39,501 nt of DNA from Candidatus Latescibacterota bacterium (GCA_022820705.1 JAJEEZ010000439.1:1-39501), one strand, 5' to 3'. Shown: positions 15,224 through 30,744, counted from the first letter of the stretch. The notes: a model not told the origin generated them from the letters alone. A program made the numbers and translations.

Positions 15224-16276
15224 ATGTCTGCGGTCCCCCGAGACCTGCGTCAGTTTTTGCACCACTACATTCCAGCCCTAGAAGAGGAGATGTTTTCGTT
15301 CCTCGCGGTGCGCGAACCCGAGGAGTTCCTATATCGGCTGATGCGCGACTACCCGGAGCGCGGCGGCAAGCGATTCCGCCCGGTGTTGGTGCTGCTGGCG
15401 TGCCAAGCCTGCGGCGGCGACGTGAAGAAAGCCATGCGAACTGCGGTGGCTTTTGAGATGTTCCAGTCGTTTGCCGTAGTCCACGACGATATTGAGGACG
15501 ATTCGGAGATGCGGCGCGGCAAGCCCTGTTTGCACAAACTGCACGGGATCCCATTGACCATTAACGTCGGCGATGCCTTATACGCCAAGGTCTTTGAGAT
15601 CCTCAACGCGAACCGCGAGGTGTTGGGGGCGGATGTCGCGCTCGATTTGATCGACGAGATGATCCGCGGCTCGTGCGAGACGTTTGAGGGGCAGGCATAC
15701 GACGTGGGTTGGATTCGCCAGCGCTATATTCCCAGCGAGGACGAGTTTATGATCATGTTGCGCAAGAAGACTGGGTGGTACACGGGCCGGGGGCCGTGTA
15801 CGGCCGGGGCGATTATCGCGGGGGCTGAGATGGAATTGCGAACTCGTATCGGCGATTTCGGCGAGTCCATGGCCATTGCGTTTCAACTGCGCGACGACCT
15901 GCTGAACTTAAGCTCTTCCGAACAAGACGCCGGCTCTGCGCCCGGGGTTACTTCTGGGGCCTATGGCAAGGAGCGGGGTGGGGATATTGCGGAAGGGAAG
16001 CGGACTTTGATTATCATCGACCTATTGGGCAAATGCAACGCGGCGGAACGCGAAGAAGTGCTGGCGATCTTGCACCAAGAGCGGCACCGCAACACGGCTG
16101 CCGAAATCGAGCGGGTCATCGCCTTGGTCGAGCACTACGAATGCGATCGCTACGTCGAGCACGTGTGTCAACAGAAGGTCGAAGAGAGCGTGACCCACCT
16201 AGAGAAACTCCCGGCCAATCCCGCGCGCGATATGCTGGGAGAAATGCTGGACTTTCTGGTCCAGCGCGCCTTTTAG
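15224..16276 (+). CDS. Polyprenyl (geranylgeranyl-type) diphosphate synthase
   Basis: The ATG at 15224 lies within ORF 15149..16276. The first DDxxD-type motif is VVHDDIEDD and the second is FQLRDDLLN. Confidence 0.85.
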   Translation: MSAVPRDLRQFLHHYIPALEEEMFSFLAVREPEEFLYRLMRDYPERGGKRFRPVLVLLACQACGGDVKKAMRTAVAFEMFQSFAVVHDDIEDDSEMRRGKPCLHKLHGIPLTINVGDALYAKVFEILNANREVLGADVALDLIDEMIRGSCETFEGQAYDVGWIRQRYIPSEDEFMIMLRKKTGWYTGRGPCTAGAIIAGAEMELRTRIGDFGESMAIAFQLRDDLLNLSSSEQDAGSAPGVTSGAYGKERGGDIAEGKRTLIIIDLLGKCNAAEREEVLAILHQERHRNTAAEIERVIALVEHYECDRYVEHVCQQKVEESVTHLEKLPANPARDMLGEMLDFLVQRAF

Positions 16277-17328
16277 TCCACCACTGGATTTTCCAAATAA
16301 GCGAGAAGTAACTGCGCCGTGTTGACGATGCCGTCCCACGCGCAGATTTCGTACCCGTGCGTGTTGTCGCCCGGGTAGCCAATCAGCGCAGCACGCGCGA
16401 TAGCGCCGGACGTTTTGGCAATTGATGAGTCGCTGGAATACGAAGTGAGAACGGCCGTTTGGATGTTGAACCCGCAGGCGGCGGCTAGGGCGTCAAAGCG
16501 GTCGATGATGCGCGCGTCGTACAGACCCCGAGTGTCGCGGACGCCGATGATGGGATCGCCGCTGTTGGCCGTGCCGTATTCGGCCGCCGCGGGCGCGATG
16601 TCAACAGCAACGGCCGCGTCAACTGGCAGCCGCCCGAGCGCGTAGATTGCGCCGTGACCGCCGATTTCTTCGCTGGAACTGGCTAAGAGATATACGTCTT
16701 GGGCCGGTTGGTTCTCCCGCAAGTGCAGGCCCACTTCGAGCATGGCCGCCAAGCCGGCGCGGCAATCGAGATTGTAGCCGCAGACGCAATCGCCTAGACG
16801 CCAGAGCGTCTTGTGTTTGCCGGCGATGACGACCCGAGTGCCGGCGCGAATCCCGCGCTGGGACAGTTCCTCGGCCGCGAGCCTCGTTTCAATCCACATC
16901 TGTTCCCACTTGAGCGGTTGGCCGTTTTTGAGCCGTCCCGCTGGACTTTCTGTGGAGACGTGCTTGGCTCCGGTGGAAAGCACGCCCGGACAGAGGCCAT
17001 CCCGCGTTAGGATTTCCACTGGACTTTCGCCTAGTGCCCAAGGGTGCAGACCGCCTAAGGGTTGCACCCTGATTTTGCCGTCGGAGTCAATGCGTTTGAC
17101 GATGAGGGCGATCTCGTCCTTGTGGGCGACGGCGGCCACGGGCTGATCGTGGCTTTGGCCCTTGATGTGAATGATGATGTTGTCGGCTGCGTCCTGCCAG
17201 ACGGCGTCGCCGATGGGAGCGGCGAGCTCGTTGACGAGGGCGTCCATCGCGGATTCTGCGCCCGAGGGTGCGTGCGCGGCGAGCAGTTGCTCGACAAAGC
17301 CGTAGAGGCGTTGGGCATCAATGTTCAT
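16273..17328 (-). CDS. M42 family (FrvX-like) glutamyl aminopeptidase
   Basis: Length and motifs fit: ...VAAVAHKDEIALIV..., LDCRAG, SSSEEIGGHGA. Confidence 0.75.
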   Translation of the reverse strand: MNIDAQRLYGFVEQLLAAHAPSGAESAMDALVNELAAPIGDAVWQDAADNIIIHIKGQSHDQPVAAVAHKDEIALIVKRIDSDGKIRVQPLGGLHPWALGESPVEILTRDGLCPGVLSTGAKHVSTESPAGRLKNGQPLKWEQMWIETRLAAEELSQRGIRAGTRVVIAGKHKTLWRLGDCVCGYNLDCRAGLAAMLEVGLHLRENQPAQDVYLLASSSEEIGGHGAIYALGRLPVDAAVAVDIAPAAAEYGTANSGDPIIGVRDTRGLYDARIIDRFDALAAACGFNIQTAVLTSYSSDSSIAKTSGAIARAALIGYPGDNTHGYEICAWDGIVNTAQLLLAYLENPVVD

Positions 17329-17332
17329 GGCT

Positions 17333-17370
17333 TGCTCCTAATTGCAGGTGAGCGAAAATAATTAGGAGCA
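17333..17370 (-). promoter_or_regulatory. 11-bp perfect inverted repeat enclosing the SD of the M42 peptidase gene
   Basis: tgctcctaatt (17333-17343) pairs with aattaggagca (17360-17370) across a 16-nt loop. On the mRNA the 3' arm contains AGGAGC, 4 nt upstream of the ATG at 17328. Confidence 0.45.
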
Positions 17371-17417
17371 CGCCGCGGGGCAATGACAATGCCTCTACGG
17401 GGATATTGGCAAAGAGA

Positions 17418-18026
17418 TCAGACTGGTGCGGCGAGCGATCCAATCACTTCTTCGGCCAGCCCGCGCAAGGTCTTTTGCAGCCGCAGGCGGCCCCGGTTGA
17501 CGCGCGATTTGACCGTGCCTACGGGGCAGTTAATGATCTTGGCAATTTCCTCGTACGAGAGTCCTTTCAAGTCGCGGAGGAGCACGGCGGCGCGAAATTC
17601 TGTGGGCAGGTCCTCGATGGCATCGACGACGAGCGCCTTGACGCGGTTGCCGTCGGTCTGTTCGCCCGGGATCGGGTCTTTGGCCGCCGGCTCGTAAAAG
17701 GCGGCAGTCTGTTCGTCGTCACTGGGGCTGATGGGAATCCAATTCCAGCGCTTGCGGCGACGCAATTCGGTCTTGGCGAGGTTGCCAGCAATGGTGTAGA
17801 GCCAAGTGGAAACCTGTTCGATGGCGGGGTACTGATGGCTGTGGCGCAGGCAGCGGAGAAAAGTCTCTTGGACGATATCCTCGGCCGTTTCCTTGTCGCC
17901 GACAAAGCGATAGACAAAGTTGTACAGGGGGGTGCGATAGCGTTTGACTAGCACGCCAAGGTGGCCTTGGTCTTCGGCGGCCCGCAGCAAAACTTCTCGA
18001 TCCGTGAGTTCATTTGTCGCTACCAT
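17418..18026 (-). CDS. ECF (group 4) sigma-70 family RNA polymerase sigma factor
   Basis: Region 2 (DIVQETFLRCL, WLYTIAGNL) and region 4 (LSYEEIAKIINCPVGTVKSRVNRGR) are both present. An AAAGGAG RBS lies upstream. Confidence 0.9.
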   Translation of the reverse strand: MVATNELTDREVLLRAAEDQGHLGVLVKRYRTPLYNFVYRFVGDKETAEDIVQETFLRCLRHSHQYPAIEQVSTWLYTIAGNLAKTELRRRKRWNWIPISPSDDEQTAAFYEPAAKDPIPGEQTDGNRVKALVVDAIEDLPTEFRAAVLLRDLKGLSYEEIAKIINCPVGTVKSRVNRGRLRLQKTLRGLAEEVIGSLAAPV

Positions 18027-18083
18027 GGTTGTGCTCCTTTCTGGTGCAATTCAAGCGATTATCGTCATGCCTAGGCATACACA

Positions 18084-18099
18084 AGCAATAATCGTGCCA
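18084..18099 (-). promoter_or_regulatory. Sigma-54 (-24/-12) promoter TGGCACGATTATTGCT upstream of the ECF sigma gene
   Basis: The minus-strand reading of 18099..18084 is TGGCACG-N4-TTGCT. This is a full match to the TGGCACG-N4-TTGCW core with correct GG/GC spacing. The predicted start is near 18073, about 47 nt before the ATG at 18026. Confidence 0.65.
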
Positions 18100-18163
18100 T
18101 TCTTCAATAAGGGGAAAATTCGCGTCTTATCGCCCGTTTTTAGGGGTTTTTGGCACCAAAAAG

Positions 18164-18197
18164 CCTCAGATATTTGAGCATCCTCAGAAATCTGAGG
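18164..18197. promoter_or_regulatory. Two adjacent 16-bp palindromic sites (candidate activator/UAS sites)
   Basis: CCTCAGATATTTGAGC (18164-18179) has 12/16 positions symmetric. CCTCAGAAATCTGAGG (18182-18197) has perfect 7-bp arms. Their centres are 18 bp apart, about 100-115 bp upstream of the predicted sigma-54 start. Confidence 0.4.
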
Positions 18198-18282
18198 CGC
18201 GTCTTTTGACAGGTACAGGGGCAAGCGGTAGATTTCGCACCGGTAAATTCACCCGCGTAATTGCTAAAAATGGAGTGCTTTA

Positions 18283-18900
18283 GTGCAAGAGTTGGCCACG
18301 CGCTTGGAGGCCTTGTGCCAAGCCAAGGGGGCAGAAAAATTCTCGGCTGAAGAAATAGTCGAGCTGTTGGAAGATGGTGAAGAGGTAGATTGGATTCTCG
18401 ATCAAGTGCTGCCGACGGCCACTGAGGCCGATCGCAGAGAAATGGGCCAAGTGCTGGCCGAAATCGCCGCAGCGGTGGCACCTGCTCCCGACGCGGATAC
18501 AGACGATGAAGAACCTGCCGCGGTGGAGGAGTTGGACTTGGCCCAACTCCAGCAGGCCCTGCCGCCCGGAGTTGACGTGCAGCAGGTCGAGGAAATGCTG
18601 CGCTCGCCGCAGGGAGCTATGCTGGCCGATTTTAGCGCCTTTTGCCAAGAGCGCGGATTCGATGGCGAGCTGGGTGAAGCGGAGATGAGCGAGGCCATGC
18701 GGGAATTGCACGAGGAGTGGTTGCAGACGCCGCGACCTGCGCTAGAAGGTGAAAAACCGGCTGCCGTGCTGGACGGAGGTCGGCTCTTTCCCAGCAAGGT
18801 AGAGACCTTCCGCCGCGAAACCCCCAAGGTCGGACGCAACGACCCGTGTCCCTGCGGCAGCGGCAAGAAGTTCAAAAGATGCTGCGGTAAGGCCGCTTGA
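18283..18900 (+). CDS. SEC-C motif domain protein (acidic, function unknown)
   Basis: GTG start with GGAG 8 nt upstream. The C-terminal [19 protein letters not shown] is the SecA-type metal-binding SEC-C motif. Confidence 0.7.
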
Positions 18901-29271: not shown

Positions 29272-30744
29272 ATGCTTCGTCCCGAGCAAAATACCGGCTT
29301 GCGCCTCCAGCAAAGGATGGCACCGCAGCTCATCCAATCGCTGCGGCTGTTGCAGATGTCCACCTTAGATTTGACGCTGGAGGTCAAGCAGCAACTCGAA
29401 CTCAACCCCTTGCTTGAAGAGGTCGTCGAACTGCGCGAGGAGGGGGAAGAGGAGGAACTGCGCGAGCAGGAGGAGGGGCTCAAGGCAGAAGAGGATCTGC
29501 CCGAGGACATGGAGGAGGTCGATTGGGACGCGCTGTTGGACGATCAGTTCGACGTGGGCGCGTATAATAGCGAGCGCACGGAATACGATCCCAACTGGGA
29601 GGCTGACCGCGAGCCACAGGAAAACCGCATCACCGCCATGCCGCCTCTCTTAGAGCACCTGTATCGTCAGCTAGGCGAGATTGGCGGTTTGGCACCGGAA
29701 GAGCGCGCCGTCGCCGAGTACATCATCGGCAATATCGACGAGCGCGGTTATGTCGGTTGCTCGCTCGCCGAAATCGCCGATGATCTACAAGTGGAAGTGG
29801 CTGCGGTTGAAAAGGTGCTGCGCGTCCTTCAGTCTTTTGACCCGCCTGGAGTCGGCGCGCGCGATTTGCGCGAGTGTCTGATGATCCAGTTGAGCCAGCG
29901 CGACGACCCGCTTAGCGCCCTGGCCTTGCAAGTGGTGCGCGACCATCTAGAGGACCTGACGCGGCGGCGTCTGCAGCACATCACCCGCGCCTTAGCCATT
30001 TCCAACGAGAAGCTCAAAGAGGTTTTGCAGGTCATCGAGCGCCTACAGCCGCATCCGGGTCTGTTGGCCAGCAGCGACTACGACAATCTCTTGACGCTGG
30101 ATAACGAGGTCGCGTACATCACGCCGGACTTGGTAGTTGAAAAAATTGGCGAGGAGTGGCAGGTGTGGCTGGCCGACGGGTCCATGCCGTCCTTAAAGAT
30201 CAATTCTGAATACCAGCATCTGCTCAACAATTCCCATGGCGACGGTGCGGCTGCGGTCAAGGACTACGTGGCCAAGAATCTCAACGACGCCCGCTGGCTC
30301 ATCAACGCCATCCACCAGCGCCGCACTACCATACTCAAGGTGGGTAATTACCTGTTGCAGGCGCAGTTGCCCTTTTTCGAGCAAGGGCCATCGCGGTTGC
30401 GGCCCTTGGTCTTGCAGGACGTGGCTGACGCGGTGGGAATGCACGTATCGACGATTAGCCGTGTCAGCAACGGCAAGTACGTGCAGACGCCGCATGGGGT
30501 CTTTGAACTGAAGTACTTCTTCGACAACAAGCTCATTACGGACGAAGGTGAAGACGTGTCGGTGCGCTCGGTGAAGGAGAAAATTTCGCAGCTCGTCGCC
30601 GATGAGGACAAGGCCCGACCGCTTTCGGATCAACAGATTGTCGAGGAGCTGAGCAAGGGCGGCTTGAAAATTGCGCGGCGAACCATAGCCAAATACCGCG
30701 ATCAGCTAAAAATTCCGGCGCAGCGGTATCGCAAGGAGCTATAG
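29272..30744 (+). CDS. rpoN: RNA polymerase sigma-54 factor
   Basis: N-terminal L.Q.M.PQL.QSL.LLQ.S..DL, an acidic region II, and the C-terminal RpoN box ARRTIAKYR. Confidence 0.95.
   Translation: MLRPEQNTGLRLQQRMAPQLIQSLRLLQMSTLDLTLEVKQQLELNPLLEEVVELREEGEEEELREQEEGLKAEEDLPEDMEEVDWDALLDDQFDVGAYNSERTEYDPNWEADREPQENRITAMPPLLEHLYRQLGEIGGLAPEERAVAEYIIGNIDERGYVGCSLAEIADDLQVEVAAVEKVLRVLQSFDPPGVGARDLRECLMIQLSQRDDPLSALALQVVRDHLEDLTRRRLQHITRALAISNEKLKEVLQVIERLQPHPGLLASSDYDNLLTLDNEVAYITPDLVVEKIGEEWQVWLADGSMPSLKINSEYQHLLNNSHGDGAAAVKDYVAKNLNDARWLINAIHQRRTTILKVGNYLLQAQLPFFEQGPSRLRPLVLQDVADAVGMHVSTISRVSNGKYVQTPHGVFELKYFFDNKLITDEGEDVSVRSVKEKISQLVADEDKARPLSDQQIVEELSKGGLKIARRTIAKYRDQLKIPAQRYRKEL

Follow-up and report, generated by a model that had tools for sequence, protein, structure and literature searches.

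A candidate enhancer-dependent sigma-54 promoter conserved upstream of an RpoE-like ECF sigma factor gene in Candidatus Latescibacterota

ECF sigma factors are normally seen as members of sigma/anti-sigma pairs, and HrpL is essentially the one documented case in which sigma-54 controls such a factor purely through transcription. The question arises how an ECF sigma factor gene is controlled that has a sigma-54-type sequence in front of it and no recognisable anti-sigma gene beside it. Such a gene is found in a DNA stretch of 39,501 nucleotides from a Candidatus Latescibacterota bacterium (GCA_022820705.1 JAJEEZ010000439.1:1-39501), and this whole stretch of 39.5 kb is called the window in the following. 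A sequence-only reading of the window had proposed that the gene is expressed from a full-consensus sigma-54 promoter and is controlled at the level of transcription through an enhancer-binding protein (bEBP). This proposal was followed up by comparing orthologous loci, by scanning metagenome contigs and by weighing other explanations for each conserved element. The gene and the elements next to its start codon are as follows.

17418..18026, minus strand: gene for a 202-aa ECF (group 4) sigma factor, with PF04542 (Sigma70_r2) and PF08281 (Sigma70_r4_2) as the only domains
18034..18039, minus strand: Shine-Dalgarno sequence AAGGAG, 7 nt before the ECF ATG
18073, minus strand: predicted transcription start (+1), placed 12 nt after the C in the GC doublet
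18084..18099, minus strand: sigma-54 -24/-12 element TGGCACGATTATTGCT, with GG at 18098-18097 and GC at 18086-18085

The encoded protein reaches 96.2 bits on TIGR02937, the NCBIfam model of the ECF superfamily (cut-off 42.9). This generic model alone is passed, and none of the NCBIfam equivalog models gives a score above its cut-off. The closest solved structures are those of AlgU, sigmaE and SigW (E = 1e-24 to 1e-27). Homologues number in the thousands; full-length identity is 72-97% for the best 120 clusters, few of which are named, and the names given are Latescibacterota or Gemmatimonadota. In an alignment of 14 sequences, more than half of the columns are invariant, and the linker motif RKRW(H/N)W(I/V)PI...PGE shows hardly any variation. 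Over about 70 genomes, the identity of the protein is 69-100%. In the related loci L021-L070, which belong to the locus set described below, the ECF protein is 69-82% identical, compared with 51-80% for the M42 peptidase, 45-71% for the SEC-C protein and 52-81% for the RmlC protein encoded nearby. Judged from these comparisons, the conservation of the ECF protein is unusually strong for a factor of this class.

The element TGGCACGATTATTGCT agrees with TGGCACG-N4-TTGCW at 12 of 12 positions, and its GG and GC doublets are exactly 10 nt apart. When both strands of the window were searched, this was the single exact match to the pattern, with 0.01 matches expected. The chance rate was obtained from dinucleotide-preserving shuffles, of which 1 in 100 contained a match. 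If up to two mismatches are allowed, the window holds five matches compared with 8.3 expected, and the other four lack GG or GC. Since the C of the GC doublet (18085) was taken as position -12, standard sigma-54 promoter geometry places the predicted +1 at 18073, which leaves a leader of 47 nt up to the ATG at 18026. Within this leader, AGAAAGGAG around the Shine-Dalgarno sequence is kept in relatives. The sequence-only reading had described a full-consensus site with correct spacing, had called it the sole full match on either strand and had put the predicted +1 about 47 nt ahead of the ATG; all three statements were confirmed by these searches.

The earlier reading had also named conservation upstream of orthologous ECF genes as a check, and this check was run. 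When one genome per species was scanned, 70 loci with this ECF protein (identity 59-100%) were obtained, nearly all of them from Candidatus Latescibacterota MAGs, some of which are still filed under older Gemmatimonadetes labels. Two unrelated ECF genes (Bacillus, Poribacteria) were returned as well and were used as negative controls. Of these 72 loci in total, the 69 related ones that have upstream DNA were used for the promoter counts. All 69 have the pattern GGYAYR-N4-TTGC on the coding strand ahead of the ECF gene, with about 0.1 expected, at 27-163 nt upstream of the start of the ECF protein match. Just one further match exists in the 436 kb of these loci when both strands are counted, and the best sigma-54 score of the unrelated ECF control loci is 8/12. 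The 69 sites represent 46 distinct 16-mer variants in which GG and TTGC are invariant. When the 46 loci that are more distant are taken alone, the information content stays below 0.4 bit in the flanking columns and is 0.65-0.72 bit at two consensus positions outside the search pattern, namely the T preceding GG and the T preceding TTGC. The conserved unit thus coincides with the motif and leaves its flanks unconserved, and the comparative support for a putative sigma-54 promoter is about as clear as data of this kind allow.

A motif of this kind could still be a chance match or a relic, with the ECF gene being transcribed from an unrecognised housekeeping-sigma or ECF promoter. No sigma-70-type promoter was predicted on the ECF strand, where the consensus that was used may not be that of Latescibacterota. 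The RpoE-type patterns GGAAC-N-CGT and GAAC-N-TCnAA were found in 0-2 of the 69 loci compared with about 1.3 expected, although these patterns may not reflect the specificity of this ECF factor. Since the housekeeping and ECF consensus of the host may differ from those searched, the failure to find other promoters is weak evidence, and this is what speaks for the chance or relic explanation. Against it stands the occurrence of the motif in 69/69 loci where about 0.1 would be expected, with GG and TTGC invariant and the flanks not. Furthermore, a paralogous ECF gene carries the motif too. This paralogue (L069, 2977-3618, 213 aa, 59% identity) lies in the same MAG as locus L034 and is preceded by the sigma-54 consensus TGGCACGCCCTTTGCG at 2914-2929, 48 nt upstream of its ATG (63 nt from the first base of the motif). 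We regard a chance match or relic as very improbable, and on the conservation data it is close to refuted.

The paralogous gene is located between a methyltransferase-like ORF and an RND-pump-like ORF, as read from the translations. Its upstream region contains no CTCAGA palindrome of the type described next.

Aligning the intergenic regions of the close clade revealed two adjacent 14-bp palindromes of the form CTCAGA-NN-TCTGAG upstream of the promoter, which the sequence-only reading does not mention. Together with a series of A/T tracts they make up the upstream part of the region.

18183..18196: distal palindrome CTCAGAAATCTGAG, perfect, candidate bEBP enhancer (UAS), centre at about -116 from the predicted +1
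18165..18178: proximal palindrome CTCAGATATTTGAG, one mismatch, centre at about -98 and 18 bp from the distal one, second half of the tandem UAS
18137..18162, minus strand: three A/T tracts (T5, A5, A5) at intervals of 10-11 bp, located between UAS and promoter

The distal palindrome can be extended to CCTCAGAAATCTGAGG (18182-18197). For the window, 0.08 matches to CTCAGA-NN-TCTGAG are expected. With at most one mismatch, 55 of the 69 loci have the palindrome no more than 260 bp upstream of the promoter, and four more have it further upstream, in a longer intergenic region, which gives a total of 59/69. A recognisable copy by the same threshold is missing in the remaining 10 loci, and elsewhere in 432 kb of these loci there are zero matches. 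The tandem arrangement, with a spacing of 18-21 bp, recurs in many relatives. On account of its position, tandem layout, dyad symmetry and strict association with the promoter, CTCAGA-NN-TCTGAG is read as the probable enhancer for an unlinked activator of the bEBP type.

The distances between palindrome and promoter cluster at about -73, -84, -92, -102, -112 and -120, and between close relatives they differ by indels of 11 and 10 bp. In a Rayleigh test for helical phasing the signal is strong over all loci, with p = 0.013-0.14 on unique distances. The steps would fit a requirement for the same face of the helix, which is graded as suggestive only because significance is lost when identical distances are collapsed. 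The CTAAAAAC block of A/T tracts is kept in the close clade and not in distant clades. It may provide an intrinsic bend that aids DNA looping and substitutes for IHF. In one close relative (L015), a 10-bp CTAAAAACGG unit of the A/T-tract region is duplicated.

Conserved blocks in an intergenic region could also have other functions, and the distal palindrome in particular could be read as an intrinsic terminator, or the blocks as an RNA element or a small ORF. The sequence CCTCAGAAATCTGAGG followed by CGCGTCTTTT was flagged as terminator-like on the plus strand by a scan, and an ORF of 57 aa (18224..18051) spans the region. The flanking genes diverge, so that there is no plus-strand gene whose end lies upstream of the palindrome, and for this reason the palindrome was rejected as a terminator. 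Moreover, it is the sequence and not the pairing that is conserved, with asymmetric variants such as CTCAAAAATCTGAG among the sites, and a T-run is lacking at the second copy. The 57-aa ORF was rejected because close relatives differ by indels of 11 and 10 nt, which disrupt its reading frame. As to an RNA element, an Rfam scan of positions 17300-18400 with E-values up to 1 gave no matches, and the predicted leaders of 68 loci fold no better than shuffled sequences (mean z = -0.1), so that no conserved structure was found in them. Taken together, we rate a terminator, an RNA element or a small ORF as extremely improbable.

Two further repeats overlap the promoter region itself. The first is a perfect 12-bp palindrome on the predicted start site.

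18067..18078: perfect 12-bp palindrome ATGCCTAGGCAT, spanning the predicted +1

The earlier reading had pointed out this palindrome. It is indeed present and perfect in the window, but it is not conserved, not even in the nearest locus (L001), where the ECF protein is 100% identical and the DNA is not. This locus reads ATGCATAGGCAT, one base off, and most others show ACGCATAGCCAT or a deletion. The palindrome was rejected as a functional element, and as it is specific to the window it is probably due to chance. The second is a longer inverted repeat, CGATTAT...ATAATCG, formed by the promoter spacer and the leader. It was rejected likewise, since the spacer reads ATTA, ATTC, ATTT or GTTC in different loci without compensating changes.

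In some close relatives (L011, L015-L017, L019, L020, L035, L050 and L068) the leader of the ECF gene is lengthened by an insertion of about 25-40 nt. The inserted segment folds into a GC-rich hairpin (GCGTCGCC..GGCGC), which the window lacks.

The upstream palindromes also lie close to the promoter of the neighbouring gene, which diverges from the ECF gene.

18283..18900, plus strand: divergent SEC-C gene, whose 205-aa product is acidic and has a SEC-C zinc motif at its C-terminus; synteny is kept in nearly all relatives
18206..18234, plus strand: sigma-70-type promoter TTGACA-17-TAGATT of the divergent SEC-C gene, agreeing with the consensus at 10 of 12 positions

A GTCAAAA block at this promoter is conserved in relatives. 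Its -35 box (18206) is about 10 bp from the distal palindrome, so that the SEC-C and ECF genes may be co-regulated. The palindrome may even serve the SEC-C gene instead of, or in addition to, the ECF gene. In the extreme case the palindromes would be bound, as operator or activator site, by a conventional regulator that acts on the SEC-C promoter, with the sigma-54 enhancer lying elsewhere, and the location of the distal palindrome at about -45 to -58 of the SEC-C promoter is compatible with such a role. The stepwise shift of the palindrome-promoter distance in the ECF loci, by about 10-11 bp each, speaks against it.

Further evidence on this point came from metagenomes. In search of regulon members or of the activator, metagenome contigs were scanned for CTCAGA-NN-TCTGAG followed after 76-106 nt by GGYAYR-N4-TTGC. 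At least 120 contigs (L073-L192) with the palindrome and the sigma-54 core were found. Among the matches listed, 11 of 120 contigs encode this ECF factor, and most of the other contigs listed, mainly from peat metagenomes, show the same architecture before genes for Gly/Cys-rich lipoproteins. These genes include families of 43 and 21 loci among the matches listed (e.g., L089, 246-372, and L087, 1195-1319). Before the lipoprotein genes the palindrome stands 83-113 bp upstream of the sigma-54 motif, in more than 100 contigs. One contig (L141) encodes a protein that is assigned by NCBI to MAGs of Polyangia (Myxococcota). Lipoprotein loci of this Polyangia type, and not genes of Latescibacterota, thus made up the bulk of the matches listed. 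On another contig (L189, 5058-5170), genes for a histidine kinase and an NtrC-type bEBP are located directly upstream of the palindrome and the promoter.

The recurrence of the palindrome in more than 100 contigs, before sigma-54 motifs that belong to unrelated lipoprotein genes, and the NtrC-type bEBP gene directly upstream of it in one of these contigs both run counter to an operator that belongs to the SEC-C promoter, and we consider such an operator quite unlikely to be the main role of the palindromes. The same architecture supports the interpretation of the palindrome as a putative enhancer tied to sigma-54 promoters.

The other side of the ECF gene and the wider neighbourhood bear on the question of whether the factor has a partner protein.

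16273..17328, minus strand: M42 family peptidase gene, 89 nt after the ECF stop codon

The gene order is kept among the relatives, with SMC, RmlC and SEC-C genes on one strand, the ECF gene diverging from them, usually followed by the M42 gene, and a convergent gene for a polyprenyl synthase. In none of 70 genomes does an anti-sigma gene lie next to the ECF gene, whose neighbours are the SEC-C gene on one side and the M42 or the convergent polyprenyl synthase gene on the other. The statement of the earlier reading that no anti-sigma-like ORF follows the ECF gene and that the next gene is an M42 peptidase gene at 89 nt was verified for the window, and the lack of such an ORF holds in 70/70 genomes.

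About 15 relatives have no M42 gene at this position. In mid-distance clades that keep it, a clear intrinsic terminator follows the ECF gene and the M42 gene has a sigma-70-like promoter of its own, and in one distant clade the spacing between ECF and M42 genes is merely 38-50 nt. In the spacer of the window (17329-17417, minus strand) no terminator was found, as in the rest of its clade, and a conserved sigma-70-like sequence TTGCCC-17-TATTTT is present at 17383..17355 on the minus strand. From this sequence, the M42 gene of the window probably has its own promoter. The spacer also contains an inverted repeat, CTCCTAATT...AATTAGGAG, which pairs with the Shine-Dalgarno sequence of the M42 gene and is confined to the close clade.

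Given the absence of a linked partner, the level of the ECF factor would be set mainly by its own transcription. The opposing possibility is that the sigma-54 promoter is real and that the factor is nevertheless gated mainly after translation, by a distant anti-sigma factor or by the SEC-C protein. All of the nearest solved relatives (AlgU, sigmaE and SigW) are under anti-sigma control, and zinc-binding anti-sigma factors exist. In addition, nearly all loci have the SEC-C gene as the divergent neighbour of the ECF gene, with a regulatory region common to both. However, no anti-sigma domain was found in the SEC-C protein, whose sole domain match is the 19-residue SEC-C motif, and its adjacency is not specific evidence because the whole region (SMC, RmlC, SEC-C, ECF and polyprenyl synthase genes) is syntenic. 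ECF groups that lack an anti-sigma factor and are controlled at the level of transcription are, moreover, well documented (PMC8999054), which takes further weight from such gating. We regard control mainly after translation as unlikely, and prefer the reading in which the ECF factor would escape post-translational control and its gene would be governed by sigma-54 and an activator.

Both of these components have to be encoded in the genome, and for sigma-54 this is seen within the window.

29272..30744, plus strand: rpoN (sigma-54), after lptB, with PF00309, PF04963 and PF04552 all present, so that the domains for activator interaction, core binding and DNA binding are complete

The rpoN product scores 428.9 bits on TIGR02395 (cut-off 277) and contains region I and the RpoN box ARRTIAKYR. 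The presence of rpoN in the same window, to which the sequence-only reading had drawn attention, is therefore established by all three sigma-54 domains and the passed family model. It is ordinary lptB-rpoN synteny, though, and adds little to the case. For the activator, GAFTGA and ESELFGH motifs were searched in six-frame translations of the 39.5-kb window and of the 72 loci, with no occurrence, and Pfam scans of the larger ORFs of the window gave no Sigma54_activat domain. As no bEBP gene lies in the window or the 72 loci, the activator would be unlinked, and it is hypothetical.

Altogether, the proposal that the ECF gene is controlled at the transcriptional level through sigma-54 and an enhancer-binding protein gained support from the comparison of loci, with the promoter in 69/69 and the palindrome in 59/69. 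We consider it highly probable, on comparative sequence evidence, that the gene is transcribed from a genuine enhancer-dependent sigma-54 promoter under the control of an unlinked bEBP. According to this model, sigma-54 holoenzyme would be bound at the -24/-12 element (18099..18084) as a closed complex, and an unlinked AAA+ bEBP would occupy the tandem CTCAGA-NN-TCTGAG sites about 100-115 bp upstream of the start. The bEBP would reach the polymerase through DNA looping, possibly aided by the phased A-tracts, and would open the promoter using ATP; dependence on rpoN and on the activator is what we infer from this arrangement. The resulting mRNA, with its predicted leader of about 47 nt, would encode an RpoE-like ECF factor that has no adjacent anti-sigma partner and that would redirect core polymerase to its own regulon. 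The signal sensed by the activator would in this way set the amount of the ECF factor and hence the activity of the regulon.

For an uncultured phylum, these predictions define a promoter and a candidate enhancer to the base, within a syntenic module that belongs to the core of the phylum. They would provide a testable handle in organisms that are unculturable, consisting of a promoter/enhancer pair, a motif with which to find the activator, and a likely master regulator with a predictable regulon. They also illustrate that, once orthologous loci are set side by side, sequence data alone suffice to call a sigma-54 promoter with high confidence.

A more far-reaching reading is that the locus represents an ancestral, phylum-wide relay from sigma-54 to an RpoE-like ECF factor, in which anti-sigma control has been abandoned and whose enhancer is shared with lipoprotein genes of Polyangia. 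The nearly invariant ECF factor and its paralogues would then have no other role than to amplify the output of a single dedicated bEBP pathway. Its enhancer, CTCAGA-NN-TCTGAG at a phased distance, would be of sufficient age, or under sufficient constraint, for such sharing, and a conserved bEBP family would control the cell envelope across phyla. We put this forward as a possibility that is, for the time being, doubtful.

Among known systems, the closest in logic is HrpL. A cascade from sigma-54 to an ECF factor is not new in principle, since HrpL is the textbook case, and in a literature search it was the sole sigma-54-driven ECF gene found. The same search returned nothing on sigma factors of Latescibacterota, and the main text of the Casas-Pastor ECF classification makes no mention of this phylum or of sigma-54. 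HrpL of Pseudomonas syringae (ECF32) serves in a review as the model of an ECF factor that is regulated transcriptionally and has no anti-sigma factor (PMC8999054). As in the HrpR/HrpS-sigma-54-HrpL pathway of P. syringae and Erwinia, an ECF factor without a cognate anti-sigma factor would be expressed here from a bEBP-activated sigma-54 promoter (PMC8999054). The differences are nevertheless considerable. The host is an uncultured member of Latescibacterota and not a gamma-proteobacterial plant pathogen, there are no T3SS (hrp) genes in the window or the syntenic loci, and the ECF protein is closest to RpoE, AlgU and SigW by its best NCBIfam and PDB matches. The hrpRS genes are located in the hrp cluster, whereas the activator gene is unlinked here, and the enhancer motif differs. 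Furthermore, no counterpart of the negative autoregulation of HrpL was detected, and the module is a syntenic core feature across the phylum.

A relay of sigma factors is also found in Borrelia, where sigma-54 and a single bEBP, Rrp2, drive the gene for a second alternative sigma factor. The locus resembles it as a relay and differs in its output, which in Borrelia is RpoS (group 2) and not an ECF factor. This Rrp2-RpoN-RpoS cascade of Borrelia burgdorferi is mentioned in PMC12655853. With SigE of Streptomyces coelicolor (ECF39, CseBC), the locus has in common that a separate signalling system would set the transcription of the sigma factor gene (PMC8999054). Unlike the activator proposed here, however, CseB is a conventional response regulator that works with a sigma-70-family holoenzyme, and neither sigma-54 nor an AAA+ activator is involved.

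In sequence, the closest solved relatives are RpoE, AlgU and SigW, which have the same sigma2-sigma4 architecture. Their modules include a co-transcribed transmembrane anti-sigma factor (RseA, MucA and RsiW, respectively), whereas none is adjacent here in 70 genomes, and in place of an RpoE-type autoregulatory promoter, which was not seen above chance with the patterns searched, the ECF gene has a predicted sigma-54 promoter. The locus is thus a new example of a known logic and not a new mechanism: a well-supported relay from sigma-54 to an ECF factor outside plant pathogens, in which the HrpL type of control would have been arrived at independently by an RpoE-like, stress-type ECF sigma factor.
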